This document shows, piece after piece, positions 42,985 through 64,000 of a stretch of DNA of 64,000 nt (the stretch's first letter is position 1; each line of letters starts with the position of its first letter). Position numbers and translations under genes: made by a program. A model generated the notes under the pieces. It did not search any database. It had not been told where the DNA came from and worked only from the letters and a program-made list of their open reading frames with translations. The stretch comes from Elusimicrobiota bacterium (GTDB lineage: Bacteria; Elusimicrobiota; Elusimicrobia; 2-02-FULL-39-32): positions 6,500-70,499 of the forward strand of contig JAKFYJ010000010.1 of assembly GCA_021730935.1 (NCBI GenBank), in the 5' to 3' direction.

Positions 42985-42994
42985 AAATGGAAAT
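42979..42994. repeat. Direct repeat, left copy (CAATAAAAATGGAAAT), includes the TAA stop of gene 1
   Basis: Exact 16-nt match to 43579-43594, exactly 600 nt away. The match extends to 19/20 identities from 42975. Confidence 0.9.
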
Positions 42995-43510: not shown

Positions 43511-43516
43511 GTGCAA

Positions 43517-43578: not shown

Positions 43579-43594
43579 CAATAAAAATGGAAAT
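43579..43594. repeat. Direct repeat, right copy (CAATAAAAATGGAAAT), includes the ATG of the response regulator
   Basis: Exact 16-nt match to 42979-42994. Confidence 0.9.
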
Positions 43595-43970
43595 ATTAAA
43601 AAAGAAAATTTTGGTTATCGACGACGAAAGCCCGATCGCGGACATGATCGCGGATTTCTGCCAGACCTATGGCTTTGAGACGCGGGTCCTGAACAGCGGG
43701 GAAAAAGCGGTGGAAGTGGCGAAAGCTTTCAGGCCGGACTTGATCACGCTGGACATCGTCATGCCTGAAAAATCCGGGCTCGAGGTGGCGGACCTCCTCA
43801 AAAACGACCCCGAGACCGTCAACATCCCCATCATCGTGATTTCGTCTTATACGAACGCCGTGGAAGCGGCCAAGTCGCTCCAGATCGCGCAGGCGGTTCT
43901 GCAGAAACCCGTGTCCCTCAAAATACTGGAAGAGAACATCGGGTCGGTCCTTTTGCCAAAAAAACCATAA
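43587..43970 (+). CDS. Stand-alone CheY-like response regulator receiver (127 aa)
   Basis: KILVIDDE (D12/D13), LITLDIVMPE (phospho-acceptor D56), IIVISSY (S86/S87), LQKP (K107). There is no output domain. Confidence 0.9.
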   Translation: MEILKKKILVIDDESPIADMIADFCQTYGFETRVLNSGEKAVEVAKAFRPDLITLDIVMPEKSGLEVADLLKNDPETVNIPIIVISSYTNAVEAAKSLQIAQAVLQKPVSLKILEENIGSVLLPKKP

Positions 43971-43998: not shown

Positions 43999-44031
43999 TT
44001 ACAAAAAGTTTACAAAAAGTTTAGGAAAAGT
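43999..44031. repeat. Three tandem 11-bp units (TTACAAAAAGT x2, TTAGGAAAAGT) in an AT-rich intergenic region; putative promoter/UP or regulator-binding element
   Basis: Read directly from the sequence. The units are helically phased A-tracts 30-65 nt upstream of ATG 44063. TTTACA (44009-44014) and TATATT (44047-44052) are -35/-10-like hexamers, but their spacing is not canonical. Confidence 0.45.
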
Positions 44032-44062
44032 TTATCTTCTTCTGTTATATTTAAGTTATCCG

Positions 44063-44980
44063 ATGATTAAGACCTGGCTTAGGGTGTCCACCCTCCTGTG
44101 CTTCTTTTCATTTTCCGGTTTAAATAACGGCTTCACTTATTTTATAGTCTCCTCCGGCCAGGTCCAGCGCCTGGACGTCTCCCACGCATTGATCGAACGC
44201 CTCGCGGTCGCGGTCAACCCTGTCAGAGTCCAGTCCGAGTTCATTCATTTCGCGAAACATTTCTTCGTCTCAAAACCTGCCCGCGTGATCGAATTCGCGA
44301 GCCAGCGGGCCGTGCAGAATTTCATGCTCCAGTCCTCCGTCCTCCACACCTGGCTGGCCCTCTCCTGCGGCAAACTGATTTCTGTCCCCGCCGCGCCCTC
44401 AGCTCTGTCCGCCGAAAAACCTTCTTCCGCCGTCCAAGTTTCAAATGTTCCCGCGCGTTCCAACCCAACCGGAACCGCCATTGCCGCGATGAACGCCGGC
44501 CAGACTCATTCGCTCAATTCATTGCAGGAAACCCTCGAAGCGTCCCGCAAACAGGATCTCGTCCTCAAGCGCCAGAACGGCGGGGCTCATTCAGCCGAAG
44601 ACACTTTTTCCATGCATCGCCGCAAAAAATTCGAAGTCCCCGAACGCTCCGATTCCCGTTCCGCCTTCACGGCAGAAAAACTCCGAAAATGGCTCACTTC
44701 CTCTCTATCCAGAGGCGGAGGCGCCGCTCCCGAACCCTCGATTTCCGTTTCCGCCAATTCCACCCCAATCACTCTGTCAGCAAGCCAGGGTGATTTTCTT
44801 TTTATAAGATCAAAAATTTTGGCTGATTCTTTTTTCCGAAGACTGTATCGAGCAAAAGACTTCGCATACGCTTTTGCGAGATCCAAGCGAGCCCGCACTC
44901 GGCGAGCGTGTCTTCGTAAAAATGAGTCAGCCAAAATTTTTGATATCCATTTCGATCTGCGCGCGGAGACCATTTCATGA
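44063..44980 (+). CDS. Hypothetical protein (305 aa), hydrophobic N-terminus, basic C-terminus
   Basis: ORF with the same C-rich third-position bias as the giant genes. Its TGA stop overlaps the ATG of gene 2 (ATGA at 44977-44980). The N-terminus LRVSTLLCFFSFSGL is signal/anchor-like. I saw no clear RBS and recognised no family. Confidence 0.45.
   Translation: MIKTWLRVSTLLCFFSFSGLNNGFTYFIVSSGQVQRLDVSHALIERLAVAVNPVRVQSEFIHFAKHFFVSKPARVIEFASQRAVQNFMLQSSVLHTWLALSCGKLISVPAAPSALSAEKPSSAVQVSNVPARSNPTGTAIAAMNAGQTHSLNSLQETLEASRKQDLVLKRQNGGAHSAEDTFSMHRRKKFEVPERSDSRSAFTAEKLRKWLTSSLSRGGGAAPEPSISVSANSTPITLSASQGDFLFIRSKILADSFFRRLYRAKDFAYAFARSKRARTRRACLRKNESAKIFDIHFDLRAETIS
44965..44968 (+). promoter_or_regulatory. 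Shine-Dalgarno (GGAG) for giant gene 2
   Basis: GGAG lies 8 nt upstream of ATG 44977. Confidence 0.55.
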
Positions 44981-45087
44981 TCGGTTTCTGGGCGTCTAAA
45001 CTCAATCTTCACTGGCTGAAATCCACCGCGGCAGTCCTCGCCTGCGCGCTCCTCTTCTCTTTCATCGCCCCGCCCTTCGCCCAGGCC
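44977..45087 (+). other. Sec-type signal peptide of gene 2
   Basis: MIGFWASKLNLHWLKSTAAVLACALLFSFIAPPFAQA / GIWEDRR: a basic n-region, a hydrophobic core and an AQA cleavage-type site. Confidence 0.7.
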
Positions 45088-48000
45088 GGCATCTGGGAAG
45101 ACCGCAGAAAAGCGGTTGAGCAGATGAACCGCGACAAGGAAAAAACCCGCGACGCTTTCAAGCCCGCCCGCAGTGTCCCTTCTGCATCAACAGAGCCCAA
45201 GGTTTCAATCCCCGGGTTCGGAGACGGGTTCACGGTCCCCTCAGGCCTCGGCTCCGTGGTTGAATCGTGGGGGGGGACTCAGACTCTCGAAGCCAAGGCC
45301 AAGGGATATCCTCTCGTCATCCACATTCAGGACGCTCACGGGTTTTATGGCGCTCAGAAAAACGAAGCCGCCCTCCTGAAACATATTTCCGAATCTTCTT
45401 CACCGATCCTTGTTTCAGCTGAAGGCGCCTGGACGCCCGTGGACGCCCGCTGGCTTGAAGCGCTTCCGGACCCCGGCTTCCGAAGCGTTGCGGCCGAAAA
45501 TCTCCTGCGCTCAGGCGAGATCACAGGCGAACAATTTTTGGCGATCACCGAGGGCGCGGAAAAAATAAAAATCACGGGCGCGGAAGACGAACGGATTTAT
45601 AAAGCCAACCTGAAATCCCGCGAACTGCTTGAATCCGAGCGGCCCGCCATCCTTGCGAAACTGAACGAGTCCCTGAACCGGATCAACGAAACCAAGAAAA
45701 TCGTTTTCCAAGACAAGCTCCTTTCCCTGGACATCGCTTCCCGCCAGTTCGAAGCGCAAAAAATCACCCTCGCGGAATATCTGAAATTCGTTCAGTCCCG
45801 TTTTGCTCTGGACCCTGCGAAATATCCTTCGCTCCGCCAGCTTTCCGATTTGGCCGCGTCAGAAGATGCCCTGCCGATGTCCGCGGTGGAACAGGAACGC
45901 AAATCCGTTTTGGATTCTCTCTCAGACAAGCTCGACAAGATGACCCTGGCCCAGCTCGCCCAGACCAGCCTCAATTTCAGGACCGGGAAAATGCCCGCCT
46001 CCGTGTTTTATGACACCCTCATCAAACTGGCCCGCGTCAACAATATCCCAACCCCATCGCTCGACAAATATCTGGATTATCTCGCCCGCTCCGAGTCCCT
46101 TGACCCGCAAAAGGCGCTCGCGGAACTGAAATCTTTTGAGTCCGAAGCCATGCTCTCCCTCGCCGCAGGAAGGCCTGAACCGCAAAAGCTGATCATTGAG
46201 AGCCGCGGCATGCGTTCCCGCCTCAAATTCTGGGACGAGAAATTTTCGCCCGCAGACTGGGCGGAATATCAAAAAATGCAGTCAGAGAATTTCGCGGAAG
46301 GCGTTCCCGGAGGCAAACTGTCCGCCGCCCAGCTCAAGTTTTTGCAGGACGCTTATTATAAACTGGCCTTCAAGCGCGACCGCATCATGGTGGAAAAGAC
46401 TCTTTCAGCCGCGAATGAGCAAGCTTCTGTCGTCCTCGTCGCCGGAGGTTTCCACACGCCGGGCATCACCCACATCCTCCGCGAAATGGGCGTGCCGTTC
46501 ATTGTGATCCGTCCCAGCCTCAACAGCCCTGCGCCGGCGCAGACAGCCCGCAAACCGTTCACCAAAGCCGAATATTCAGCCTTCGCCCAAAAATATGCCG
46601 CCAACCTTGAAGCCCTCAGGTCCGGCAAAAATCCGGAATCCGACAAAACCATAGCCCAGGTCATCGACATCATTCAGAACCGCCTGTCGTTCTCCGAGCC
46701 CGTCGAAAAAGACGGCCAAACCCTGGTCTATGGAGCATTCCAGGGCGACCAGTCCCGGGTCTATTTCAAAATGTCCTATGACCGAACCATCGCCTCCGAA
46801 CCCCTCGCCTCCGCCGATTTCCAGGACGCCCTCAAGGCCTCCATGGGTTCTCTGCGCGCCTTGACGGTCCTTGCGGACCCCACAGATGTGCCCAAACTCG
46901 TGCGCACTATCCTTTACGCGACTCAACCCAATGAAATCAAGGGAGTCGTAGAAGACGAAATCCCTAAAGAACTTCAAAATCCTGGTGCAGACGAAATCGC
47001 CGAGCGGTTGAAATTAGCGGCGGCCGTTGCCCGCGCGAAAGGCGCCCAGACGCCAGCTCCGTCTCCTGCCCCGACGGACAATCAACCCGCCGCGAGTAAA
47101 AAATCCGGTTCGGCCACATTCAATCTCCCCAGAGCCTCTTCCTTCTTCCTTCCCCTGCTCCTGGTTTCAGGCGCGGCGCTTGCTGTTTATGGTGTCCAGC
47201 TTTTGTCGGGACTCCACCTCTCTCCAGAAATCGCGATGCATCTGCCTTCAATCCAGGGCAACTCCTCCGGAATTTGGGGCGCCGCGGCCGCTCTCCCGAC
47301 TCTGAGCGTCATGAAAGTTTTAGACATCTTCCTGGACCGTAAAAACAATCTTAGATCTGAGGCTAACCAGGAATTGCAAGACCGCGGTTATACAGTCGTT
47401 GAGTTTAGAGATGAAGGAGTGTCTCCATTCAGTCAGGCAGGGCAATACAAAGGACCATTGGCTGAATTGACAGAGAAAGCGCGTGTGGTTCCAAGCGAAG
47501 TTACGGCCAAACCGCTGAAGCATTTCGAAACGGGCAGGGATATTTCTGTGCGTTACAAAGGCGCGCAGGCCGTGATCGCCATGGTAAATGGATTGTCCGA
47601 ATGGATCATCGAACACTCAAACGGCAACGGCGCGATCCTGTATCGTGAAACTCCAGGCGGACTTGAAATCATAGCGCGAGATTTTGGCAGGCCGATAAGC
47701 AATTTAAGCAAACTTGACAGACTTCTGGAATTTGCCAGAGATGTCGCGTGCTCAGGGCGGGCGGGAACCTTCACGATCGAGTCGGGGGGCAAACACAATA
47801 AATACAACGGGATCGTCTGGAATCCGGAAATCTCCAAGAGTGAAGTGAAAAATGGCAGTTATATCGTCATTGATCTCAAGAGACAGGTTGTTGGCGGGGC
47901 AGTTGTCCACACGGGAACTCAAAAGCTCGATGAAAATCCTGTTTCATCTGACGCCACAGAAACTCCAACCGCTCAGGATTGGTACACTGCGTATGTGTCT

Positions 48001-51000
48001 GCAAAGGCCTTGCCGATGATACAGAATGGTAAGCATCAATTCTCCATGACCAGATTTGAAATAAATGCCGCCGCTCGGGATAATAATTTTGTTTTTAAAC
48101 CCACTCTCCTCGGTGACATCATAGCCAAACCCGCAACCATTGAAGTCAATGAATACACATTGACATTGAATCCAGAAGGACCAAATGTTCGGGTCATGAT
48201 CAAGCGGAACGATCAGAATTTTTCGCCTCCCAAAGCCCACAACCTTGTTCAGAATGTTGCCGCATCTGCCGCGGCTTTGTTCGTCGCCAAATCCGGATTG
48301 TTCCTCCTGGGTTGGGCGGCCTCCCCGATCCTGCTTTCGCTCGGATTCGCTTTGATGTCCGGCGGCGCCGTGATCGGAATGATCCTGGGGGGACAAGCTT
48401 TGGCCGTTGGCTTTATGAGAGCTCTTTCGTCCCTGGGAACGGCAAGCCCGGAAAGAGAAGCGGAGCTCCGTGAAAAACTCGCCGCTCGCGGTTTCGACAT
48501 AGACAAAATTAAATTCAAGGATTTGGGCCGCTTCACTTCTGCCCGGACCTCAGGCGGCAATCGCGTCGGGATCAGCCCCTGGCTGGCCTTCAAGTTTAAT
48601 AACAGACTGTTGGATGGGCTCATGACCCGCATCATCCTGCCCATGATCGTCGAGCATGAAGGGCTGAGGAACGATTTGTTCAGGAGGGGGTATGTCAGAT
48701 CCAACACCTTCATTGTTTATCTTGCCAAATCACTCAAATTTAATTCATTCACACCCAAATCAAACACTTCAAACGACATAACTCTCCAAACAGCTTCCAA
48801 CAAAACCCGTCTTTGGGAGTCCTTCGCACGGTCGGCCATTGTGCTTGTTCCCATGGGATTGGCACTGTTTTCATATCTAACCTCCGCCTCAGGCTTGATG
48901 ACCATCCCGCTCGTGACAGCGATCCTTAACGGATCCGGCAGTTTCATCGTGCCTTTGATGGCAAAAATTCCGTTCCTCAGCGGTGTGGCTGGAGGAGCTC
49001 CTGTCGCCGTCATTGGTCTCATGTTCACCTTGATTGTCTTTGAACTGTCCGGCCAAATGGTGGGGGAGATCTACCGTATTATTTTAAAACAAATGGGTTA
49101 TCGCACAGCAGGAATCGGCCTGACTTCCGGCAAAGATGAAGTCCTTCAGGCGCTCAAAGAGGATCACGGCCTTGATGATCAAACGCTTGAGACCTTGCGC
49201 GCTTTATCCCGAAGCGGGTTGACCCGGCTTTATGTCGCTCTCGAGCGTGAAAAGATTTCTCAACAGGGCGATCAAAAGGCCCTTGCAAACGCAAAACGGA
49301 AACAGATGCATGAGCAGGAACAGCAGAAATTCATGCAGAGCGCGCCGCTTCTGGTTCGCCCATTCTATTTTGGATTCAACAAAATTGTGCATCTGATCAA
49401 TGACCTCGTTGGAATTTTCCATTCCTTCGTGTTCCAGTTTTATATCGATTCGTTCTCGAGATATGCGCTGGGCCGGTCTTCCAAACTTTCGGACGAACAG
49501 AAAATTCATTTAAACAATTATGCCCGTTCATTGGCCGGCAGAATCACAGCTGACGGACGCGTAAACATCCCAGCATCATTAACCTCTTCCAATCTGTCTT
49601 TGAAAGCAGGTTATTCCTTCGGGAATATGATGAGATTTGTTCCCGGAGCATATCTTTGGCAATCCAATGTCTTTCTGCGCGGAACCATAAACCTCCTGAA
49701 AAAGCGATCCACCCTCTATATGATCAGCTCAGTTTTCGGCAAAGGTCTGTTGCCGCATATTCTTTCCCCGCCTGTGCTGGAAAGCTCAGCCCTTTATTTC
49801 GTTGCGGCGTTTCTCTTTTTCCGATTCCTTTACAGTGTTTATGAGTCCTTGAAAGCGCGGCAAACAGCCGGCTCTGACAAATCCATTCAAAGGCCCCGCA
49901 TCCTTTGGTCGAAATTGGCCTGGGCTCTCACGGTCGTCATGGTCAGCATTGTCGTCACCGGGGTTCTTTCTCCCGACGCCAGTTTCATTCAATCTCTCTT
50001 TGTTCAGTCTTCCGTCAACCCCGGCATCCATCAGTTTCTGGGCTCGAATTATTTGGAAGTCATCAATCCGGCAACGATAAAGCTTTTTGGATTAAACCTC
50101 CATTTCTCCTTCCAGGGGATCATCTCTCCGCTTCTCACAACTCTCGGCATAGGATTCACCGGATATCTCCGATCTGAAACGCTTCAGAGAGCGGCGTCAA
50201 ATGAACAATATCAGGGAACGCTGAGCGGATTTTCCGTCGAGCAGGTTGAAAATGCCATCGCGAATTTAAATAAACTTGAAAATAATGACGCGATTAAAAT
50301 TGCCAGAGCTTTGAAGCGCGACATTCTTGCCGGATATGTTCAGCGGGGCGGTTCTCACGTGAACGCCAGCGATTATGAGCGAGACAGACTCTTAAAGCTC
50401 CTTGAAACTGCGGTCGGAGAAAAAAATCTGTGGGATATTTCTGCTCCCAATCTGGCCGAAGTTCTGGTCGGGGGGGTCAAATCTCTGAGAACGTTGGGAC
50501 GAATTTCCACCCTTGACTCTCTTTCTCACGGCACATTTTCCATGTGGACCGTCACTCCGGAAATTCAGGCAGTTGTCTATGGAGCAGGACAAATTGATTC
50601 TGTGATAAATCACTTGCCGTTCGTGCATGGAGTTGAGACCCGCGCTGAACTGGATCTGATCAAGACAGCGGAAAGCTCAATGCGAAACTCACCCAATCCC
50701 CAACATTCCGCTTTGCAGGCGCTCCACAGCAATGTCGAGCTCGACAAAACAGCCGCTGAACGCATGATCAGCGCTGTGGAACATCTGCCCTCTGATGCCA
50801 AAGCGGACACGGTTGCCCAAGCCCTTCATGAAACGGCCTCCAAAGTTTCCTGGGTGACCGACACCGTCAACCTGGTGGAAAGCGATCAGCAGGGCGTCAT
50901 GAGTCTCGGAGATCAGTTCGGCAAATGGATTTATGCCGCGACGGGATTTGAATTCGGCGAGCAAAACCGGACCGCTGAACTCAGAACCATGTTCAACATC

Positions 51001-57000: not shown

Positions 57001-60000
57001 CTCCTCCAGGATCTCTTCACCCTTGCGGAAAACTCTCCCGAAATTTTGATCGTGAAAGCGAAAAGGATTGCGATAAACCTGGGATCAAATTCAAAACTCG
57101 CGGACGATGAGGTTCTCGCCATGGAAGAAATCTGGAATGATGAGAAACTTTCTCCTCGCGACAAAAAAAATAAGCTTCAGACGGCTTTTGAAACCCTGCA
57201 CCTCAAAGTGCACGGTTCGGACCTTGATTCAGCAGACTCCGAAAGAATTCAGACTTTAAGAGACGCTGTCGAACGGCTTAAAACCGTCGCGTCCGGTTCG
57301 GACGACGCCATATCCCAGCTCGAAAAAATTTCAGCGATTTTAATCGCGGACCGCACCCAGGCCAGGCCTGAAGGAATTGTTCCAATCTTCTCGCGCCTGA
57401 GTGAAACACTGAAGTGGAAGGGACGCGAAGGAATGTTCCTTTCTGAAATGTTCCAGACCTGGGACACCGCTTTCATGGGCCGTTTTGATCCTTTCGTCGA
57501 TTACCGCATCGCTCTCAAAGAATCAGAAATCCATCAGATGTCCGCTCTGGTTGCAAATGGAATGGAACCCATCTCTGTTAATCTCGAATCCATCACCTTG
57601 CTCCATAAGAGCTTGGATCCGAATAACCCTGAGAACAGCTCTTCAAACGCAAGGAATGATCCGAACAGTCCCCAATATCAGTCCGGAAAAATAAGCCAGG
57701 GACTCGTGAAATACGGGACCCTTGCGATCCCGGTCATCCCCGCCAAAGCCATGGGCGGAATCTATAAGGTTTTTGATAAGCTGAAGCTCGGGAAAGATCC
57801 TGTCACCCGCACAATGTTCTCAATATTTCTCCCCGGATACAGTGAAAACAGGGCGCGGCCTGCCAGAGTTCTCACTGAACGGGACAGAGCCAGAAACGCG
57901 TTCCGAAACGCGGATAATGTTCTTTTGAGAACCGTGAATCAGATCAATGGCGACATTCAGGCGTATCTCGAATCAGACGAGGTAAATTACGAAGTGCTCA
58001 CGCAGGCGCAGGAACGCATTAGCGCGCAGGTCCCGGATATGGATGAACCACTCCCTCCGCTTGAATCGAAAAGCAGAAATGACACCATGCGCGGTTTCCT
58101 TAAAAATATCAACGTGCTAGTTACAAATGCCGGTGCAGTTCGGAGTGTGAGCCGCAGCAACCTTCTCTCACAGGGTATTAATCTTGCAGGGATGAGCCGT
58201 CAGACTTCAGGCGATGCCGGAGAAAGACTGATCGTCGGATTCTCCCCAGGCTCTCAATTGGCCGCTGGAAGTCCGCGCGTCGTGCAGGCGGAAGGCAGGG
58301 CCAAAGTTGAATCGGATATTCTTGAGGCGATGAAGATTGCGGGGACCCGCTCGCGCGCAAGCTTGAATTTTGTTCCTGATCCTGAATTCCTCACCCAAAC
58401 ACACCCCGGAAAATTTTTGTGGAGCACCGCGCGGAACCCTTCGCTGGGCATGACTCTGTTTGACCGTTCTTCAATAACTCCGGCCCAGCTCCGAACCCAG
58501 GAACATCGCGCCAAATGGGCTGAGATCGGCGTGGATGCTGAGAAAATGCGAAGCGCAGACCAGATCGAAGACGCCTATGGCCAGATTGCTGAGCTGCTGG
58601 TCGCTCAACAGATGCCGGAAACCATCCGGCAGACCATCCTCCAGAAATTTGGATATGTGACGGGGGCCGGTTTTAAAGGCTCATTGGAAAATCTGAGCCA
58701 GGAACAAACACAGAATCAGTTCAGGAATTTGTTTTATACCGCTTCCAGCAACCTGTCTCACGCGATGGCCCAGCTTAAAACTGCGGCCGGAATCAACAGC
58801 GGCTATCTCATTTCAGCGTCGCTTCCTGAAAACTTTGACAAGATGGTTTCACTGGGAACCAATATCACGGCGCTTGTCCAGCCTGATTTCATCACGCTTC
58901 CCGAAGTCAGGCAGATGAATGAGGATTTCGACAGGCTGAAATCTCAAAACGCGGCAGTCCGGCAAGAAAGACTCTTCCCCGTGATCAACGCCAATATCGT
59001 CAGAAACAGATTTTCAGACACCACAGAACTTCAAACACAGCTGTTTTGGAGATTTGTCGGGGAAAATGTCAACGCCAGAAGCGCGACCCTGAAGAGTTTC
59101 ATGCGGACCGTTGACCTCCAGATCGAAGACCGCACTCGGAATCTTGCAAATTTCAATGAAAGACAGAGGTCAAACGTCACCCGCGCGGCTGAACAGCTTG
59201 AGCAATTGGACAAAGAAATCTCTATCGTTTCAGATCTCCTCACCAAGAGCAATGAACAATATGAAAGAAATGAAATCACAGTCGCGCCGGTGATGTCCCT
59301 CGTGAGCCGGCTTGGCCAGCTCTATCGGGACCGGATCCATGTCGTTATGGTTTTCGCCACCACCTATGATTATTTGGCTGAAATCTCCGGACTGGACAAC
59401 CTTGAGACAGTCATGAAAAAACAGGGAATGGTTGATTCGGACGGCGAGTCTTCAATCACCAATATCATCAGGGAACTCAAGCCGCAGATTGAGGAACAGG
59501 AACGGCTGGCCGCTGAAAGCAAGGATAAGCCTTATGTGATGCCGGCTGACTGGGCAGGTTTGAAAGACCGCGCCCCTCCGGCTTTCGTTCAGAACCCCGG
59601 CAAACCCGCGATCGCGTTTCAATCGCAGACAAAAGTTTTCTCCATCGCACGAAAAGGTCAGCCGTTCAACATGTCGATCGGCCATCTGTCCATCGCTCCT
59701 GCCTCTTTAAATCAGTCGATGGCGGAGTTTATGAAGTCGCAAAACATTCCGGACACCGATCTGCACATCGTTAACCACGCTGATTTGGCAGGGCTCCTGC
59801 ATGAAGCGCTTGGGAATGATGATATGCGCTATTCCATCCCTGAATACAAGCGCGAACAGATTTCCAGGAATTTCTTCCGGGTCCTTCCCAGAGTTTATGA
59901 ATCTCTCAAGGGAGCCCGAAGCCCGGATGACTTGCCGAACATTTTATCTTCCTCGGTTTTTGACGCCTATGCTTCCCGCCTCATTCCCAAACTGAATGTT

Positions 60001-63000
60001 CTTCTTTCCAGCCCTGAAGTTCAGTCTCAATCCGATTCCAACCTCGTCAAGAAATTCGCGCTTGCCTTCATGTATGCCGTTGAAATGACCGAGGAGGTTT
60101 CAGAATCCCAACAAGACCGTTTCCTGACGGATCGAGTTGACTATGACCTGAACATGCTCCGGATCGGACTTTTGAAGCGTCAAGGCGACCGCGCAATTTC
60201 TCAGGAAGATTTTGAAAAATACATGACTTGGGAAGCGGATCGGGGAAACCTCTGGACCCGTCTCATGATCACCAAACGCATGCCGGCCGCAGACAAAGAC
60301 CGTTATGTCGCCGCCGCTCACAAGTTCATTGCCCAGTTTTTCCCGAAAACCGAGCAAGCGCAAGCCCTGAAAGATCGAGAACTCACCAAGTTCGGCGACT
60401 TGCGCCTGGAAAGCATGTATCGGTCCCTCATGTCGTTTGCAATGGCCAACAATCTGACTCCTGAAGACCTCAACAACTACATGAAAGTGGTGGGCGGGTT
60501 CATTCCCGAAGTTCAAAAGTTCACGTCGCAGGCCACCCTCCAGGATTTGTCACAATTAGCCGAGTCCGAACGAATCCGTCTGCTCTTGGAACGGCTCAGC
60601 CCGGCTGACACGCGCTGGAGCGCCGACGAAAAGAGAAGTCTTGAAGCACAGCTCAAAATTGAAATTGAAGAAGCCAGAGATTCCATGACCCTTTCCATCG
60701 CCATGTTCTGGAGCCAGGAATTCCTTCGCGATTTTGCATTCCTTCGAGACGGCAAATATGATTTAAAAGCCGCTTCTCAGGGCGCCACCCTCCGGCTGAT
60801 GCAGGCGAACTTTAAGTCGTTTATGGATAAAGCGGCTCAACTCCGCGAGATGAAGGCGACCATAGACGGAGTCCCCAATGTTAATCCGGTTGAAGTTCTT
60901 CTTCAGCGCCAGAGAGGTCTTTCTTCCGGGCAAAAAATCAACTGGTTTGAAGCGGAGAATCAGGGATTTGTTTCATCTCTGGTCGTGGACTCCATCAGGG
61001 AGAACTGGGACACGATGCCTTCCCAGCAGAACGAGCTTCCGGAATTAAAAGCGCACCTTCTGAATTTGGTCTCTCTCTCGAATGACGCGTTCAATCCCGG
61101 AAAATCCAATGGACATCTGCAGAACGTCAAAAAATATTTTGACTTAATCGGACGCCGCCTCGACTTCAAACTGAAACCTGGAAACGGATCCGATCCCGCC
61201 GAAATTAAAACGGAGTGGGGAGTGCTCAATGGGATGCTGATCGGCCTCGAGCATATCTATAGAAAAATTGGTCTGACTGAACAGGAAATCAGACAAGGGC
61301 TTGAAGATTATGTTTTAGTGCGCGACATCATCGTCAAGGAAAACATAGACATCGCCGAGAGCCTGGACACCTATTATCTGACGGCCGCGTATCATGCCGA
61401 CGACATCGACACCGGGGAACGGCTTGACCTTTCGCTTCCCCGGCGGGCCGCTTTCAGACAAATGATCGAAAAAATCGCTTTGGACAACGATCAGCGCATC
61501 AAGGCAAGCCTTGAATATGGAAGCGACAATAATTTTGCCTCCAAAGCTATTCACGAGATATTGAGGCAGTATCAATCCAAACAAAAATCGGAACGCGCGC
61601 AGAGGCAGAAAGAATATCGCGATGAAATCGCTCGGGACCCCGTGACAAGCATCGAACGGATGAAGAGTCTCCTGGCTTCAAAAGCTCGAATCGCCTTTAA
61701 GGAAATTTCTCTCGACAAAGAAAAGTTTTTAGACAGCACACAGCTGTCCTTTTTGGCCTACCGCATGGTTGAATTTGGATATACCCCTGAAGAAACTCTT
61801 GAAAGATTTGTTTATCTCATGGAGCGCGTCAAAGAGCACTATCTGAATGTGTTCAAAATGCCCCTCACTCAGGAAGATGAGTTTTATATCGCATCCTCCG
61901 CGGACGCTATCTGGCAAAAATGGGGTTATATCGATCCCAAGGACAGGCCGGAAGTTGACAGAAGAATTGCGGCCTTGCCTAAGATTGGAAACATCCAATT
62001 TCACAATCTCGAAGAACTCATTCAGTTTGAAGTGAATAACTCCAGCCAGAAATATTCAAGCATGAAAGCCATCATCAATATGGATTCGTTCCAGGAATTG
62101 GCCCGCGCACAGGGGAGAAAAATCACTTCAATCCCGGCATCACCGCCAGGGACGATCGACAGCGTTTTCAATGCAGAGACTCAGAATGTTTCCTACAAAG
62201 CTCTCACAAACTTGCGCTACGGCGTCATTCAGGGAAGGGCATCCGGTCAGCCCGACCGTCCCGTCGACCATATCGTGATCGATAACACCCAGGACCGGCG
62301 TTCAGACACAAAATCAACCAATATAGCAATGGACCTCCTCTCTGCGATCACCGCTTATGAAAGCGGCAAGGTCTCATTCAAGCAGGCGGAATACCTGGAT
62401 ACGGTCAACCATATCCGTCAGGTTTTGTCCGCACTGAAGGAACTTAAAGCCGGCTCTAAACCCGCTCCCGGGAACATTTTCCCTGAAAACATAGATATCG
62501 GAACCTCCCTTAAACCTCATCGAGAGCCCGATGGCACGGTGCGTTATTCTTCAATTGATTCCGGCTGGCTGACCTTCGCTCTGTCCGTTGTTTATAACTA
62601 TTTTGGAAAGAGTGAGGACGGTTCGCCCAGAGATCCCGGTCTTGCCGCGGCCGCGTGGGACCTCATTAAGGATCAGGATTACGGCGTTTTCGTCCGTCCT
62701 GAAGACCGCGGTCAGCTGAATCAGCTGTTCACGCTTGGCTCAGCGGGGGAAATTCGATATTCTGCCAACCATTATCTTGACAGGAACAGCGAAGCCCGGG
62801 TCATCGTTCCCGCACTCACAGCGATAAAGAACGCGCAAGGCCGCAACATGCTCCCGGAAAGCGCGTGGGACGCGATGGAATACAATTCCTCGGACCAGCA
62901 GGGTCTCAAAGTGGCGAACGGATATAAATTCAACGGTTTCGTAGAAATGATCGGGAACGCGTTTTTTGACGAAGCGGCCCTTGCGCCGAATGCCCTCGGC

Positions 63001-64000
63001 ATAAGCCATAAAAATTATGTTGAAGCCCAGCGAAGAGCAAGTTCTGCGGATTCCATTATTTATGGCTATGCTCCCGCAAGATTTAAAGCATCTGGAACGC
63101 AGGATTCTCCGGCCTATACGGAGTTTGGTTTGGAAAATACCGCATTTGTGACGCCCTATGCCGCGGCCGCCCTTGCCACAACAGGCGATCCCGGCGCTAT
63201 GGACAATCTTAAAAAAGTCATCAGCGCTCTCCCCAAAGACGGCCGGCCTCTGCCTGACGCTCTCGACCCCAAAACAGGAAAAGTTCACTATTCGGGAGCG
63301 TTATCCCTCGACAATGCGCTTTTCTTCCTTTTTTCAAATTATGAAACCCTGCGGCAAGTCATAAAGAAAACGAACTGGTATCCTCAGGTGGAAGAACAGC
63401 TGAAACTGATGGATAGAATCAACAGCATTTCGAGCATTCAGGACAGAACAGGAATAGCGGCCCGGACAGCCTCCTCATCGGTGCTCAGGCTTGTGCGGGT
63501 GAATCGGGGGGGAATGTTGGAAGGGATCGGATCGGATTATTTGCCTGTCACTGGGGCAGGTCCCAGGCGCGAAGCCGCAAGCTATTTCCCTCCCTTTTAC
63601 GCGCCGATCACTCCAGGGGCCCTCCTTGAATCCGGGAATCGCGCAGTGGGTTCAGTCGCGTCACGAATCGTGAGATCGAGGATCACAAGACAGAGCTCTG
63701 GACCTCAATCTCCCCAGGAACCGTCAGTCCGAGCAGGGGCTGTCGATGAAAATCTCCGGTCTCTTGCCGATGTCTTTGCTCAGGAAAAAGATTTGGAATC
63801 CTGGAGCAATGAACAAATGGGCCAGCACCTGCGGAATGTGGATTTTGTTCGCAAGAATTATCTGAATGAACTTCAGGAATACGCGAATCTGTTCGGAGAG
63901 CCGACAATACTTGACGTTTCCGCGACCGATGCCCAGCAGGCAAGAAAGATTTGGGGCGTCATTATATCGCGGGTTCGCGACTTGGAGCGGGCCAACGACA
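44977..64000 (+). CDS. Second giant multi-domain envelope protein, 3'-partial (>=6,341 codons in window)
   Basis: Frame 1 is open from ATG 44977 (the first start after the in-frame TGA at 44941-44943) to the window end. I read it through by eye and spot-checked it at several positions. No + strand frame-1 ORF is listed in the track between 45 and 64 kb, which fits a single ORF without a stop in the window. Coding-type codon bias is present. Confidence 0.88.
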   Translation, partial: MIGFWASKLNLHWLKSTAAVLACALLFSFIAPPFAQAGIWEDRRKAVEQMNRDKEKTRDAFKPARSVPSASTEPKVSIPGFGDGFTVPSGLGSVVESWGGTQTLEAKAKGYPLVIHIQDAHGFYGAQKNEAALLKHISESSSPILVSAEGAWTPVDARWLEALPDPGFRSVAAENLLRSGEITGEQFLAITEGAEKIKITGAEDERIYKANLKSRELLESERPAILAKLNESLNRINETKKIVFQDKLLSLDIASRQFEAQKITLAEYLKFVQSRFALDPAKYPSLRQLSDLAASEDALPMSAVEQERKSVLDSLSDKLDKMTLAQLAQTSLNFRTGKMPASVFYDTLIKLARVNNIPTPSLDKYLDYLARSESLDPQKALAELKSFESEAMLSLAAGRPEPQKLIIESRGMRSRLKFWDEKFSPADWAEYQKMQSENFAEGVPGGKLSAAQLKFLQDAYYKLAFKRDRIMVEKTLSAANEQASVVLVAGGFHTPGITHILREMGVPFIVIRPSLNSPAPAQTARKPFTKAEYSAFAQKYAANLEALRSGKNPESDKTIAQVIDIIQNRLSFSEPVEKDGQTLVYGAFQGDQSRVYFKMSYDRTIASEPLASADFQDALKASMGSLRALTVLADPTDVPKLVRTILYATQPNEIKGVVEDEIPKELQNPGADEIAERLKLAAAVARAKGAQTPAPSPAPTDNQPAASKKSGSATFNLPRASSFFLPLLLVSGAALAVYGVQLLSGLHLSPEIAMHLPSIQGNSSGIWGAAAALPTLSVMKVLDIFLDRKNNLRSEANQELQDRGYTVVEFRDEGVSPFSQAGQYKGPLAELTEKARVVPSEVTAKPLKHFETGRDISVRYKGAQAVIAMVNGLSEWIIEHSNGNGAILYRETPGGLEIIARDFGRPISNLSKLDRLLEFARDVACSGRAGTFTIESGGKHNKYNGIVWNPEISKSEVKNGSYIVIDLKRQVVGGAVVHTGTQKLDENPVSSDATETPTAQDWYTAYVSAKALPMIQNGKHQFSMTRFEINAAARDNNFVFKPTLLGDIIAKPATIEVNEYTLTLNPEGPNVRVMIKRNDQNFSPPKAHNLVQNVAASAAALFVAKSGLFLLGWAASPILLSLGFALMSGGAVIGMILGGQALAVGFMRALSSLGTASPEREAELREKLAARGFDIDKIKFKDLGRFTSARTSGGNRVGISPWLAFKFNNRLLDGLMTRIILPMIVEHEGLRNDLFRRGYVRSNTFIVYLAKSLKFNSFTPKSNTSNDITLQTASNKTRLWESFARSAIVLVPMGLALFSYLTSASGLMTIPLVTAILNGSGSFIVPLMAKIPFLSGVAGGAPVAVIGLMFTLIVFELSGQMVGEIYRIILKQMGYRTAGIGLTSGKDEVLQALKEDHGLDDQTLETLRALSRSGLTRLYVALEREKISQQGDQKALANAKRKQMHEQEQQKFMQSAPLLVRPFYFGFNKIVHLINDLVGIFHSFVFQFYIDSFSRYALGRSSKLSDEQKIHLNNYARSLAGRITADGRVNIPASLTSSNLSLKAGYSFGNMMRFVPGAYLWQSNVFLRGTINLLKKRSTLYMISSVFGKGLLPHILSPPVLESSALYFVAAFLFFRFLYSVYESLKARQTAGSDKSIQRPRILWSKLAWALTVVMVSIVVTGVLSPDASFIQSLFVQSSVNPGIHQFLGSNYLEVINPATIKLFGLNLHFSFQGIISPLLTTLGIGFTGYLRSETLQRAASNEQYQGTLSGFSVEQVENAIANLNKLENNDAIKIARALKRDILAGYVQRGGSHVNASDYERDRLLKLLETAVGEKNLWDISAPNLAEVLVGGVKSLRTLGRISTLDSLSHGTFSMWTVTPEIQAVVYGAGQIDSVINHLPFVHGVETRAELDLIKTAESSMRNSPNPQHSALQALHSNVELDKTAAERMISAVEHLPSDAKADTVAQALHETASKVSWVTDTVNLVESDQQGVMSLGDQFGKWIYAATGFEFGEQNRTAELRTMFNIAARNLQNEKILSSMARDREKDSTARENEPVKQDIQVKSDRMISENISTPRIPLRTNPAPVSAASGGSGPGGGGNGGPGDGKNLLSFISPIAFGSSLISGTLPLGSQIQKVGEVAYNASGLPQFLTNPFGPKDAVTDFIPSRAEQSDQTAVSNAPYDERLIQEVRDRQTANAQNKTMMTVIHADDALNSDPKNKIYDRLKNSVSARLFREEIERARQASRIAGNSNFLDLFVQGRFSRGPLLRYSPDSTSPATRLDGSSSDIGRAAGQILGRTFGQGQGIRGLSENSNPLSPSDFAPHNLIATNGELIKEVVNAAVSAVNAEKPKPVSIDKNSTVRIKETSQKIMDSDEYFRQLGQPIVQSAKTRQRTSTPARPDAQSVERQSPINLVNSAAVQSFLGIDRERLQNLIEHGENDGYFTIGLLSYFLGHDDPSTAVIEGQGYSADQVDQLFQKFVFLKDNQAFMKIFNLDGRDGRSLLSDFESAGILTYFADSLRDVNGDGRLDFVVPGGSQSAVSQTPSVQDSIRNFASSLGQNAVDIVDGVPVLRFTDAAGTPYVPDALDANLFFSAWAGILFSEVYGDFTNPAAESSYQGLNRLGLILQTASADPKERSTAITVLAHYGVLALRFEPVKDANGKIIGVTQRIWTDRNQDGIETPDEVFTAPQTMDSDTYLQSIIFASRLPGVRVRLENQEIIFINPRTNEPYITVDLMTLAGLKDGNGNLTAQALQAIAVLAYSENTALKLVPIWSSDDPATRRIVGGRMEIWHDSNGNGVLDGPEELAMPPQNIDPDVLAHGAAYISSLTGVVEYHSGDAVVMTSDGRPFMRIDLEVLSGIKSENGKPTADAVLAQSILGLYSGLSLYVKATENGLVLRRYTDVDHDGKFTEGVDKPASPDESIDPNESAWLQVQISEMPEMVKLVSSKIYQQLQVQANGEDKAAASLAKGSLGKIQAFADLGFIDQEGFQRDLTGKQRETIPLEENIRVQNMLISHPAMLAELDPEAAKFLRVNGKLNNIADLEALSGDKNANQSDRLMAQKILGLGAFIAGLTTKVIYDDQGNPVNVLLSVVVRKYGKESRLDFPLRSTDPRPAKMLYDLFLNAHEAVLMNIENFAKIINEGRGEFIPVNPTTEMLVDPNAFLGSLFFGNYGVLTQPVTFEMFGLDNLSVDLDGDGKPDEVTRFSILTASSRNPADGETPDEKLARESNNEKIQYIQKVNSIVTDLALNRGIYEKETGKDIQVMLREMNEAANGDFREWVRTAYGREPRMTEGDFYFLLFLERDASIRGVTIHDLLYDKRFKAELILTRIFFDSGIAQRRSVARWDKKLSEDMFRDVLMNQAEYVADLLNDASTATEQIDRSRVTLLQLLKDFDDAKRKVAAGIEKTDILKDLEYRILSEDRQLRSFPNTLDDAVMNLKNVLGYSPADHVTFDSDAESVNKLLTAFGVPDHHSLTIQLAQQRVERARAAIPSEYPISFSLRDSINLLRVVSGGVDPISVLNLETRGNFIDPSRRHRINAAILAYAQAVFDLDKITIEEAGKARDAGRLLSFWESELKAVESKVSNLTARIREEEIKVAADNAPLRTLEDLRSQLDDANKSLITARRSYLRYQNQSLKFVNPVAPFEGPKVSPVVRFLEGSEKVVANVLHPQAAVFKGIKFIGKIFGKTTVSLDETLRNIRTNPLTQASAPFGDSSEIGSVINQALERNEDFRKAVTQISIENSNQKALSGSKWPSISVIGRYFSFLDPTGVNPRKFGDFLTKGDLFLNLGLNWSAYDSQRAVKRHMIQNNLDIARLGVVQTANKFYSAVARSLQDRLNLKLQIAATESYIDNLKEQYENTRRYKDSNIDVNVDQASLERQIEDAESSRRETQENLILSEGKIRDLAGNQANDLLIRSESMTPDQLEKSLSFMRFEGLVREDKVNGKTVSVFTDHAQDEIKSFRSNLDAASDALRVLQAREIVENLKSVKKSSPRAFNKADTIFNQMNVLYDNPKMAPGLKTSQLDRLLQDLFTLAENSPEILIVKAKRIAINLGSNSKLADDEVLAMEEIWNDEKLSPRDKKNKLQTAFETLHLKVHGSDLDSADSERIQTLRDAVERLKTVASGSDDAISQLEKISAILIADRTQARPEGIVPIFSRLSETLKWKGREGMFLSEMFQTWDTAFMGRFDPFVDYRIALKESEIHQMSALVANGMEPISVNLESITLLHKSLDPNNPENSSSNARNDPNSPQYQSGKISQGLVKYGTLAIPVIPAKAMGGIYKVFDKLKLGKDPVTRTMFSIFLPGYSENRARPARVLTERDRARNAFRNADNVLLRTVNQINGDIQAYLESDEVNYEVLTQAQERISAQVPDMDEPLPPLESKSRNDTMRGFLKNINVLVTNAGAVRSVSRSNLLSQGINLAGMSRQTSGDAGERLIVGFSPGSQLAAGSPRVVQAEGRAKVESDILEAMKIAGTRSRASLNFVPDPEFLTQTHPGKFLWSTARNPSLGMTLFDRSSITPAQLRTQEHRAKWAEIGVDAEKMRSADQIEDAYGQIAELLVAQQMPETIRQTILQKFGYVTGAGFKGSLENLSQEQTQNQFRNLFYTASSNLSHAMAQLKTAAGINSGYLISASLPENFDKMVSLGTNITALVQPDFITLPEVRQMNEDFDRLKSQNAAVRQERLFPVINANIVRNRFSDTTELQTQLFWRFVGENVNARSATLKSFMRTVDLQIEDRTRNLANFNERQRSNVTRAAEQLEQLDKEISIVSDLLTKSNEQYERNEITVAPVMSLVSRLGQLYRDRIHVVMVFATTYDYLAEISGLDNLETVMKKQGMVDSDGESSITNIIRELKPQIEEQERLAAESKDKPYVMPADWAGLKDRAPPAFVQNPGKPAIAFQSQTKVFSIARKGQPFNMSIGHLSIAPASLNQSMAEFMKSQNIPDTDLHIVNHADLAGLLHEALGNDDMRYSIPEYKREQISRNFFRVLPRVYESLKGARSPDDLPNILSSSVFDAYASRLIPKLNVLLSSPEVQSQSDSNLVKKFALAFMYAVEMTEEVSESQQDRFLTDRVDYDLNMLRIGLLKRQGDRAISQEDFEKYMTWEADRGNLWTRLMITKRMPAADKDRYVAAAHKFIAQFFPKTEQAQALKDRELTKFGDLRLESMYRSLMSFAMANNLTPEDLNNYMKVVGGFIPEVQKFTSQATLQDLSQLAESERIRLLLERLSPADTRWSADEKRSLEAQLKIEIEEARDSMTLSIAMFWSQEFLRDFAFLRDGKYDLKAASQGATLRLMQANFKSFMDKAAQLREMKATIDGVPNVNPVEVLLQRQRGLSSGQKINWFEAENQGFVSSLVVDSIRENWDTMPSQQNELPELKAHLLNLVSLSNDAFNPGKSNGHLQNVKKYFDLIGRRLDFKLKPGNGSDPAEIKTEWGVLNGMLIGLEHIYRKIGLTEQEIRQGLEDYVLVRDIIVKENIDIAESLDTYYLTAAYHADDIDTGERLDLSLPRRAAFRQMIEKIALDNDQRIKASLEYGSDNNFASKAIHEILRQYQSKQKSERAQRQKEYRDEIARDPVTSIERMKSLLASKARIAFKEISLDKEKFLDSTQLSFLAYRMVEFGYTPEETLERFVYLMERVKEHYLNVFKMPLTQEDEFYIASSADAIWQKWGYIDPKDRPEVDRRIAALPKIGNIQFHNLEELIQFEVNNSSQKYSSMKAIINMDSFQELARAQGRKITSIPASPPGTIDSVFNAETQNVSYKALTNLRYGVIQGRASGQPDRPVDHIVIDNTQDRRSDTKSTNIAMDLLSAITAYESGKVSFKQAEYLDTVNHIRQVLSALKELKAGSKPAPGNIFPENIDIGTSLKPHREPDGTVRYSSIDSGWLTFALSVVYNYFGKSEDGSPRDPGLAAAAWDLIKDQDYGVFVRPEDRGQLNQLFTLGSAGEIRYSANHYLDRNSEARVIVPALTAIKNAQGRNMLPESAWDAMEYNSSDQQGLKVANGYKFNGFVEMIGNAFFDEAALAPNALGISHKNYVEAQRRASSADSIIYGYAPARFKASGTQDSPAYTEFGLENTAFVTPYAAAALATTGDPGAMDNLKKVISALPKDGRPLPDALDPKTGKVHYSGALSLDNALFFLFSNYETLRQVIKKTNWYPQVEEQLKLMDRINSISSIQDRTGIAARTASSSVLRLVRVNRGGMLEGIGSDYLPVTGAGPRREAASYFPPFYAPITPGALLESGNRAVGSVASRIVRSRITRQSSGPQSPQEPSVRAGAVDENLRSLADVFAQEKDLESWSNEQMGQHLRNVDFVRKNYLNELQEYANLFGEPTILDVSATDAQQARKIWGVIISRVRDLERAND
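45290..46520 (+). other. TraB/PrgY/ChaN (Tiki-superfamily)-like domain
   Basis: YPLVIHIQDAHGFYGAQKNEAALLKHI..ILVSAEGA at the start (cf. GT.H....Q/S ... VE) and VVLVAGGFHTPGITHIL (46424-46480, cf. V(V/A)GAGH..GI) at the end. Confidence 0.35.
47135..50170 (+). other. TM-helix-rich region of gene 2 with interspersed soluble inserts
   Basis: FFLPLLLVSGAALAVYGVQLL; AALFVAKSGLFLLGWAASPILLSLGFALMSGGAVIGMILGG; AIVLVPMGLALFSYL; GGAPVAVIGLMFTLIVFEL; ALYFVAAFLFFRFLY; LAWALTVVMVSIVVTGVL; IISPLLTTLGIGFTGYL. Confidence 0.8.
52828..53900 (+). repeat. About 3 tandem ~120-aa repeats, each carrying a DxDxDG-type calcium-binding loop
   Basis: Loops at 52936-52971 (DRNQDGIETPDE), 53296-53334 (DSNGNGVLDGPEE) and 53623-53652 (DVDHDGKFTE). 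The flanks align as ..(I/V)LA(H/Y)..L.L..(V/I)... W.D.N.(D/N)G....P(D/E)E ... (I/V)DL..L.G(L/I)K..NG..TA.A(L/V). Confidence 0.6.
56071..56643 (+). other. TolC/outer-membrane-efflux-protein (OEP)-like repeat 1
   Basis: INQALERNEDFRKAVTQISIENSNQKALSGSKWPSISVIGRYF...LFLNLGLNWSAYDSQRAVKRHMIQNNLDIARLGVVQTANKFYSAVARSLQDRLNLKLQIAATESYIDNLKEQYENTRRYK..NVDQASLERQIEDAESSRRETQENL..KIRDLAG is collinear with the TolC-family pattern (A...NP.L..A......A......A.....P.(L/I)...G.Y ... (L/F).(L/W)..(F/Y)D.....(V/I)..A...(A/N)...L......(V/I)..A(Y/F)......(L/Q)........Y..G.....(V/L)..A...L..A...). Confidence 0.55.
58969..59395 (+). other. TolC/OEP-like repeat 2
   Basis: RLFPVINANIVRNRFS...LFWRFVGENVNARSATLKSFMRTVDLQIEDRTRNLANFNERQRSNVTRAAEQLEQLDKEISIVSDLLTKSNEQYERNEITVAPVMSLVSRLGQLYRDRIHVVMVFATTYDYLAEISG follows the same pattern as repeat 1. 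A shorter OEP-like piece lies at 58441-58612 (SLGMTLFDRSSITPAQLRTQEHRAKWAEIGVDAEKMRS..). Confidence 0.5.
62250..63350 (+). other. (alpha/alpha)6-barrel glucoamylase-like / beta-1,2-glucanase-like (DUF3131/GH144/cyclic-glucan-synthase-type) domain
   Basis: TKSTNIAMDLLSAITAYESGKVSF (from 62314; cf. TSPTN(I/L)G..LLS..AA..LG.I), YSSIDSGWLTFALSVV (62551-; cf. (Y/V)S.VDSGNLA..L), C-terminal ..LSLDNALFFLFSN (cf. (I/L)DQGP..(L/M)(M/I)EN). Confidence 0.5.

Follow-up and report, generated by a model that had tools for sequence, protein, structure and literature searches.

Is a 19-kb stretch of bacterial DNA that looks empty in a list of open reading frames (ORFs) truly non-coding, or does it hold a gene that the list has lost, and if so, what kind of protein would that gene encode? 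We consider this question for a window of 64,000 nucleotides (nt), the whole stretch of DNA analysed here, from an Elusimicrobiota bacterium (GenBank assembly GCA_021730935.1, contig JAKFYJ010000010.1, positions 6,500 to 70,499 of the forward strand). Between 45.1 and 64 kb of the window, a mechanical ORF list contains only 17 ORFs of 100-205 amino acids (aa), none of them in frame 1 of the forward strand. The initial annotation had proposed that a second giant gene, here called gene 2, fills this region up to the window end. We find that gene 2 is one real protein-coding gene whose stop codon lies beyond the window. It probably encodes a very large, cysteine-poor, membrane-anchored protein of the cell envelope, with a glucanase-clan domain that would act outside the cytoplasm.

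The gene starts with the ATG at 44977 in frame 1 (+), in the sequence context ...GCGCGCGGAGACCATTTC followed directly by ATGATCGG, with a GGAG motif 8 nt upstream. The closest in-frame stop on the 5' side is a TGA at 44941-44943, and from 44944 onward frame 1 stays open until the window ends. Between 44977 and 63999 it contains 6,341 sense codons and zero stops, against 136-321 stops in each of the remaining five frames across the same stretch. Given the regional base composition, a run of 6,353 codons would be free of stops with a probability of about 1e-126. A direct read of the sequence agrees with the initial annotation on the start codon, the GGAG and the upstream stop, and a search for any in-frame stop between 44977 and 64000 returned none. 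Its reason for the gap in the list also holds: gene 2 is missing because the lister, by its own description, omits any ORF that runs past either window edge. The sole tandem repeat that Tandem Repeats Finder reports within gene 2 is a single 32-nt array, and self-BLASTP, permissive settings included, found no internal repeats in the protein; therefore, repeat collapse or expansion cannot account for the length.

Codon statistics agree with a single reading frame. The relative synonymous codon usage of gene 2 correlates at r = 0.95 with that of gene 1, the larger open frame at 1-42984 (+; 14,328 codons), which runs past the left edge of the window, has its start outside it and is absent from the ORF list for the same reason as gene 2; the two shifted frames reach 0.44 and 0.37. 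A codon model trained on gene 1 scores frame 1 highest in 21 of 21 consecutive 300-codon windows. The start is conserved as well. An ATGAT... start with a purine-rich Shine-Dalgarno sequence 6-9 nt upstream is present in five relatives (L005, L006, L007, L009 and L036; relatives are designated here by locus, L, or protein, P, numbers), and the first 40 residues can be aligned in L005, L006, L007 and L036, as well as in L015, with the pattern MI[GR]FW..K.N..WL.STA...LLFS...PPFA[EQ]A followed by [SG]IW. Codon statistics, the conserved start and colinear homology over about 3,200 residues, described below, all bear out the claim that the apparently empty 19 kb is coding. A non-coding or chance ORF is ruled out by the stop-free probability and the codon statistics, and RNA genes are ruled out by the lack of any Rfam family or tRNA within the window.

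The gene and its recognisable parts, with the basis of each in brackets, are as follows.

44977..64000 (+), gene 2, a giant coding sequence of at least 6,341 codons, 5' complete and with its 3' end outside the window
44977..45087 (+), aa 1-37, leader, a putative Sec-type signal peptide or signal anchor that ends in AQA before G (hydropathy, homologues)
45088..46836 (+), aa 38-620, head domain (homologues, invariant columns, AlphaFold model)
47140..49971 (+), aa 722-1665, membrane region with about 10 hydrophobic segments (Kyte-Doolittle scans)
47566..47931 (+), aa 864-985, probable diverged GHKL (HATPase_c-like) domain between membrane clusters (similarity to the L036 protein)
52474..54546 (+), aa 2500-3190, degenerate units of about 110-290 aa with five DxDxDG (calcium-loop-like) motifs (regular-expression search)
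56080..56634 (+), aa 3702-3886, one OEP (TolC-type outer-membrane factor) repeat (Pfam PF02321)
57376..57600 (+), aa 4134-4208, strongly conserved motif W..F.GRFDPF...RIALK..EI.Q..AL.A..MEPI (alignments)
59680..61551 (+), aa 4902-5525, module B, about 570 residues, conserved (exhaustive search, alignment A6, local profile)
62173..63486 (+), aa 5733-6170, module A, predicted (α/α)6 domain of the β-1,2-glucanase clan (profile A4, AlphaFold2 model, Foldseek)
63793..63999 (+), aa 6273-6341, second, partial copy of the C-terminal part of module B (hmmsearch, i-E = 3.9e-13)

By sequence comparison, the closest relatives of gene 2 are Elusimicrobiota giants that bear the automatic name 'TolC family protein'. 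A word-indexed search with aa 3301-4500 and with the last 1,200 aa gave no match, whereas an exhaustive HMMER search found 50 relatives of the last 1,200. Scanning GTDB genomes and JGI metagenomes with the last 1,200 aa returned no match either. Two long alignments stand out.

Gene 2 aa 2508-5688 with P0064 aa 221-3583, 25-28% identity
Gene 2 aa 3458-5699 with P0028 aa 2-2720, 22-27% identity

P0064 is the 6,587-aa product of JGI Ga0116241_10000112, a 239-kb contig whose edge cuts the ORF on its 5' side. Its 90% cluster-mate HOW27525.1 (6,330 aa) and P0028 itself (MFC2061308.1, 5,635 aa) carry the name 'TolC family protein [Elusimicrobiota bacterium]', which is an automatic annotation. L086 is also colinear with gene 2 over aa 3458-5699. 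The frames L086:3-18305 (at least 6,101 codons) and L087:2-21571 (at least 7,190) are open over their entire loci and contain module B-like sequence; the latter, on Ga0247727_10000129, comes from a much higher-GC organism (66% guanine plus cytosine). Giant colinear ORFs from independent assemblies are a strong argument against a chimera. These giants have in common with gene 2 the calcium-loop repeats, the position of the OEP repeat, the aa 4134-4208 motif, module B and a low cysteine content. They are, however, 5'-truncated or without the head domain and membrane region, no module A was seen in them, and gene 2 departs from them after aa ~5,700. Head domain and module A are united, as in gene 2, in P0053 (4,675 aa, Omnitrophota) and P0061 (3,143 aa). 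Another relative, P0037, has an SLT lytic transglycosylase.

The visible sequence stops inside a domain. Residues 6273-6341 correspond to positions 421-489 of the 570-position module B profile, where the window end cuts them, and they also match the module B region of P0028, P0031, P0033, P0036 and P0037; therefore, the protein must continue. By analogy with the colinear relatives of ~6,000-7,800 aa, the full product is suggested to be about 9,000 aa long, with 8,500-9,500 aa expected from the comparison with P0064, and not to exceed 30,000.

Module A was first suspected to be a DUF3131/GH144-type glycosidase from the motifs TKSTNIAMDLLS and SSIDSGW. Profile A4 matches the PDB entries 8wy1 (E = 2.2e-29), the full-length Cgs/NdvB structures 8rf9/8rf0 (5.7e-29) and EeSGL1, 8xuj (1.9e-26), and the GH144 enzymes 5gzh, 3eu8 and 4qt9 at about 2e-6; one member of the module A family matches Pfam DUF3131 (E = 6e-4). 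The AlphaFold2 model of the domain has a predicted local distance difference test (pLDDT) score of 85.5 and a predicted template modelling score of 0.89, and Foldseek ranks 1-20 are all taken by the β-1,2-glucanase clan (SGL/Cgs; E from 1e-13 to 4e-7, template modelling scores 0.54-0.73). In EeSGL1, E221 and D148 are catalytic, and the general-acid Glu (E211 in CpSGL) is conserved across the clan (Nakajima et al. 2025, PMC12102758). In HMMER alignments the Glu of NESR in 8xuj and that of SEAR in 8wy1 fall opposite E5939 of gene 2 (NSEAR), and the VDNGN Asp of EeSGL1 falls opposite D5861 (SSIDSGW); both columns are invariant in A4. The equivalence of E5939 and D5861 to the EeSGL1 residues is by motif, the residue count of the PDB chain being 1-2 off the numbering in PMC12102758. 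The Phe and Tyr of the clan, represented in XcSGL by F286 and Y367, also have counterparts by sequence, aligned to F and Y of 8wy1 (SAFve / PYaa).

Because fold, profile and catalytic residues agree, membership of module A in the β-1,2-glucanase (SGL) clan is supported, and by its residues the domain looks catalytically competent; a glycan substrate would follow from family membership only. Module A resembles the solved enzymes of the clan (PMC12102758) in the (α/α)6 fold, the significant profile matches, the general-acid Glu and the Asp. It is, however, only 10-19% identical to solved members, no single glycoside hydrolase (GH) family can be assigned to it, and it sits in a giant membrane protein rather than in a 45-kDa secreted enzyme or a Cgs synthase. 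Its stand-alone homologues nearly all start with a signal peptide, a lipobox or a twin-arginine translocation motif, which fits an extracytoplasmic location; among those with a named source, the closest belongs to a Polyangiaceae bacterium.

The other end of the protein bears on how it might reach that location. What the initial annotation called a clean signal peptide stands as a conserved N-terminal hydrophobic segment that ends in AQA before G (AEA before S in relatives); judging from the sequence, it may be either cleaved or retained as a membrane anchor. Behind the head domain, hydrophobic clusters lie at about aa 722-784, 1094-1136, 1279-1355 and 1595-1665. Residues 864-985, between these clusters, have no direct Pfam match and are 29% identical (E = 6e-8) to a stretch of the L036 protein that matches Pfam HATPase_c (E = 4e-6), and they are a probable diverged GHKL domain. 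Cysteine is nearly absent, with 2 in 6,341 residues, one of them within the leader. Counts are similarly low in the relatives P0053 (0 of 4,675), P0061 (1 of 3,143) and L087:2-21571 (2 of 7,190); gene 1 has 12 of 14,327, and smaller head-domain proteins with enzyme cargo have 0.26-0.52% cysteine. Exported proteins of bacteria that lack a disulfide-forming system typically show a strong avoidance of cysteine. The extreme, family-wide depletion is consistent with an envelope location and is no proof of it.

Between the membrane region and module A, gene 2 combines calcium-loop-like units, an OEP repeat and sequence conserved among the giants. The DxDxDG motifs are at aa 2502, 2654, 2774, 2883 and 3173, in a region with weak FG-GAP matches that aligns to the N-terminal repeats of P0064; no dockerin or TSP3 model matched the five loops. 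In P0064 that N-terminus (L085:27-1500) consists of near-identical tandem protein repeats of ~96 aa (VLGWYAGLAL...TLTILGEDGEP...), and the matching units of gene 2 are too diverged for detection by BLAST. The OEP repeat has E = 4.9e-12 and 46.5 bits against PF02321 (gathering score 22) and covers model positions 4-184 of 187. NCBIfam NodT matches the same region weakly, and P0064 bears an OEP repeat at the colinear position. The likeness to TolC/OprM/NodT factors (Pfam OEP, PF02321) is thus one full-length repeat over the gathering threshold, in gene 2 and in a colinear relative; canonical factors, in contrast, have ~450-500 aa with two OEP repeats, and gene 2 has a single repeat 3,700 residues into the chain.

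The conserved motif at aa 4134-4208 has a counterpart at L002:16054-17541, where a 495-aa gene of its own, lying just downstream of a head-domain gene, contains a 75-residue motif 45% identical to it; therefore, parts that are fused in gene 2 are split into adjacent genes elsewhere. Module B is 25-33% identical to seven other proteins and has no Pfam or PDB relative. Single-sequence PDB searches with aa 1-5000 and 4001-6341 found no match, and the PDB relationships came only from profiles. The initial annotation spoke of recognisable domains. This is right for the OEP repeat and the β-1,2-glucanase-clan barrel, which are statistically backed, but standard libraries cover only ~10% of the protein; the assignments beyond that came from exhaustive searches and structure prediction.

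The head domain belongs to a widespread family. A word-indexed search with the first ~620 residues of gene 2 found 12 homologous proteins with 22-38% identity, and among GTDB species genomes the domain was confirmed at more than 557 loci. These loci are labelled Elusimicrobia/Elusimicrobiota, Omnitrophota or 'Planctomycetia', the last probably mislabelled; the best match, 43% identical, is in Elusimicrobia bacterium RIFCSPLOWO2_01_FULL_60_11. Despite this number of loci, there is no Pfam or NCBIfam model for the domain. Among 80 loci that were fetched (L005-L084), the ORFs range from ~500 aa to more than 4,000 aa, the longest running past the fetched 10-kb flank. The domain is N-terminal in its ORF at 75 of the 80 kept loci, namely those with the ORF start on the contig. 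The C-terminal cargo varies and is unrelated from protein to protein, including enolase, phosphoglycerate kinase, low-molecular-weight (LMW) phosphatase, AceK and HATPase_c. At L003:10001-22950 and L004:23-12972, a head-domain-AceK fusion of 1,165 aa adjoins a ~3,050-3,060 aa fusion of isocitrate lyase, malate synthase and phosphoenolpyruvate carboxykinase domains. This pair is a glyoxylate-shunt 'super-enzyme' with its regulator AceK tethered to the head domain. At L036:14741-19524, the homologous gene of the closest relative stops at 2,518 aa, and the ORF that follows, at least 1,594 aa long and in a different frame, overlaps it by 270 nt; therefore, gene boundaries differ among genomes, or frameshifts occur.

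The invariant residues of the head domain are H116, I117, Q118, D119, H121, Q127, E149, G150, R467, G490, G491, H493 and T494. They form the motifs H116-I-Q-D-x-H121, E149-G150, R467 and G490-G-x-H493-T, an ordered His...Glu...Arg...His set. These residues, together with weak sequence or fold matches to three members, point tentatively to the TraB/PrgY/GumN-ChaN-erythromycin esterase-Tiki superfamily. All matches are sub-significant, however. Pfam TraB_PrgY_gumN is hit at E = 0.0075-0.015 in 2 of 13 members and the ChaN family at E = 0.11, all under the cut-off. The AlphaFold model, made with 13 sequences (pLDDT 72.9), has no significant PDB neighbour in Foldseek (EreC E = 0.48, ChaN 0.85, HopBA1 2.2), and the ~250-residue helical insertion in the model (aa ~205-480) is without counterpart in the superfamily. 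In our view, the likeness to TraB/ChaN/EreA (Tiki superfamily) is a lead on which weak hits converge, and not a result.

Beyond the open frame, the coding statistics, the conserved start and upstream partner, the homology, the domain identities and the catalytic residues, we infer the topology, outer-membrane contact, substrate and biological role of the gene 2 product as follows. The leader would direct the chain to the inner membrane, where the ~10 hydrophobic segments would anchor it, with the GHKL-like piece facing the cytoplasm. The C-terminal part from aa ~1,700 onward (at least 4,600 residues) would lie outside the cytoplasm, either periplasmic or surface-exposed. There, the OEP repeat together with the calcium-loop units may reach toward, contact or insert into the outer membrane, and module A may cut or remodel β-1,2-glucan-like glycans of the envelope or periplasm, whether these belong to the cell itself or to a partner or prey.

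Several observations weigh against this envelope assignment. A TolC protomer needs two tandem OEP repeats, and a second one is unsupported in gene 2: Pfam finds one stretch, and the next-best hhalign match of the OEP block against aa 3301-4800 has E = 0.07. When a profile of the OEP region was run against the PDB, no TolC chain was matched. Functional assignments cover only the remainder once about 60% of the protein (aa 1000-2500, aa 3900-4900 and module B) is set aside, and the 3' end of the gene lies outside the window. Positive charges (R43, R44 and K45) come right after the hydrophobic segment of the leader. Finally, head-domain relatives bear cytoplasmic-type enzymes such as AceK, in P0009 without a membrane segment between the two.

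The last two observations also speak for one of the alternatives, a mostly cytoplasmic scaffold tethered to the membrane. It is the second rival because head-domain relatives are fused to cytoplasmic-type enzymes (AceK, phosphoglycerate kinase, enolase and LMW phosphatase). In this scenario, the anchor would be uncleaved with the N-terminus outside, and the head and much of the chain would be cytoplasmic, as in the 'TM-only' (transmembrane-only) giants of Omnitrophota, a type that accounts for 46% of long Omnitrophota proteins (Nielsen & Lui, 10.64898/2026.06.07.730766). We think a scaffold of this kind distinctly unlikely, given that the AxA motif is conserved at the leader end, that the OEP and SGL-clan domains and the stand-alone secreted homologues indicate the outside of the cytoplasm, and that, from general knowledge, extreme cysteine depletion fits exported proteins. 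Moreover, at least 10 hydrophobic segments would permit use of both compartments. The reading of gene 2 as an artefact, that is, a chimeric contig, collapsed repeats or adjacent genes read together, is highly unlikely. The split gene of L036 (2,518 aa, then at least 1,594 aa in another frame) can be cited in its favour, but gene 2 offers nothing repetitive that could collapse, its codon usage and frame signal stay the same through 21 of 21 sub-windows, and neighbouring genes misread as one would contain stops, of which the 19 kb has none. In addition, colinear ORFs exceeding 6,000 and 7,000 aa were assembled independently from other samples.

The main rival takes its standing from the fact that several modules occur as separate genes elsewhere. 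Gene 2 would then be a polyprotein or 'Rosetta-stone' fusion, translated as one chain and cut after export, possibly by its own TraB/Tiki-like head. The head domain is found alone in ORFs of 500-650 aa at many loci, module A alone as secreted proteins of 420-510 aa, module B in proteins of 464-739 aa, and the aa 4134-4208 motif in the 495-aa gene that adjoins a head-domain gene at L002. However, many of the short 'stand-alone' matches may be contig-truncated fragments, and the colinear giant relatives hold the modules fused across more than 3,000 aa. Self-cleavage has been raised for Omnitrophota giants by West-Roberts et al. (10.1101/2023.11.21.568195), and the weak TraB/Tiki/ChaN/EreA likeness of the head, with its invariant His, Glu and Arg, would supply a candidate protease, but that assignment falls under every threshold (Pfam E of at least 0.0075, Foldseek E of at least 0.38) and no cleavage sites or linkers were identified. 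We regard a polyprotein as unlikely and favour a single, membrane-anchored envelope protein.

The neighbourhood of gene 2 comprises the following genes in addition to gene 1.

42994-43341 (-), PemK/MazF toxin, 115 aa (Pfam E = 8e-22)
43587-43970 (+), response regulator, 127 aa, receiver domain only, no output domain (E = 2e-19)
44063..44980 (+), orf305, 305 aa, hydrophobic near its N-terminus and with FFxFSGLNNGFT as an invariant motif (ORF list, homologues)

The TGA of orf305 overlaps the ATG of gene 2 as ATGA, and the two genes probably form a translationally coupled operon. Homologues of orf305 lie immediately 5' of the gene 2 homologue in L036, L005, L006, L007 and L009 (tblastn, alignment A3 and profile scan). 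We judge orf305 real because it is conserved in synteny in the closest relatives, which rules out a spurious ORF; it has no Pfam match. A universal pairing of orf305 with the head domain is ruled out as well, as only these five closest loci among the 80 fetched have it. A sigma-70-like promoter match at 44009-44038 ends ~25 nt 5' of orf305, and an 11-bp unit, TACAAAAAGTT, repeated 3.2 times at 44000-44038, overlaps it; this repeat may be a regulator-binding site. The response regulator gene is just 5' of orf305 and gene 2, and no identical protein is listed in the public gene-position index. A toxin-antitoxin pair at 42994-43516 (-), made up of the PemK/MazF gene and an overlapping partner ORF of 62 aa, is wedged between gene 1 and gene 2. 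The 2 kb that separate the giants contain no type II secretion or pilus genes. RHS_repeat is the sole Pfam match of gene 1 at E <= 0.001, and paralogy of gene 1 and gene 2 is ruled out by zero BLASTP matches between them.

A broader proposal, which we consider speculative and improbable, is that the head domain, with its orf305 partner in the closest subfamily, marks an undescribed, widespread system of Elusimicrobiota and Omnitrophota. Giant cargo chains would be targeted to the envelope and cut into working pieces by the Tiki/TraB-like head, and gene 2 would be a self-contained, one-polypeptide machine from the inner to the outer membrane. The cargo of such a system may range from glycan-degrading modules to whole metabolic enzymes.

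Huge genes are enriched in Elusimicrobiota and Omnitrophota, where they are membrane-associated and poorly characterised (PMC11573180; 10.1101/2023.11.21.568195; 10.64898/2026.06.07.730766). Gene 2 belongs to this already described class, which it fits in length, membrane association and 'dark' sequence. It exceeds the >5,000 aa in a single ORF used for huge proteins of Elusimicrobiota and relatives (PMC11573180), its ~10 hydrophobic segments (by hydropathy, between aa 13 and 1665) agree with the numerous transmembrane regions of Omnitrophota giants, and its nearest relatives are all labelled as metagenome-assembled genomes of Elusimicrobia/Elusimicrobiota or Omnitrophota. With the 'Archaeovorin' and 'Dockerin-type' giants of Omnitrophota (10.1101/2023.11.21.568195; 10.64898/2026.06.07.730766) it shares a long ORF, hydrophobic segments, unannotated sequence, a carbohydrate-active domain, an adjoining second giant gene (gene 1, with RHS-type repeats) and an uncultured, possibly host-dependent lineage. 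Its visible length is, however, far under the 'giant' set of West-Roberts et al. 2023 (ORF >90 kb, >30,000 aa; 10.1101/2023.11.21.568195), and its closest relatives are labelled Elusimicrobiota, not Omnitrophota. In the 6,341 aa present, no SecA-DEAD domain was matched in Pfam or NCBIfam at E <= 1, and glycosyltransferase, methyltransferase, NUDIX, dockerin, TSP3 and C39/S8 peptidase domains gave no match, leaving a GH-like domain only. A term search of 10.1101/2023.11.21.568195 and 10.64898/2026.06.07.730766 found no mention of TolC-type repeats or β-1,2-glucanase domains. The SLT transglycosylase of P0037 and the RHS repeats of gene 1 fit the published idea of action on another cell's envelope; we saw no sign of predation.

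ORF tracks that drop frames running off an edge conceal the largest genes, and here 30% of the window appears non-coding for this reason. Gene 2 adds to the huge proteins of Elusimicrobiota-like bacteria a well-supported example with its 5' end and start context complete. A glucanase-clan domain with intact catalytic residues, a very widespread and unannotated head domain and the conserved module B provide handles on a protein that is otherwise nearly blank. The conserved upstream partner orf305 and the family-wide avoidance of cysteine are further points of note. β-1,2-Glucans are periplasmic and symbiosis-related glycans of other bacteria. If module A is active, it would link these giants to β-1,2-glucan turnover, and since such glucans belong to other bacteria, the activity would fit action on the envelope of a partner or prey.

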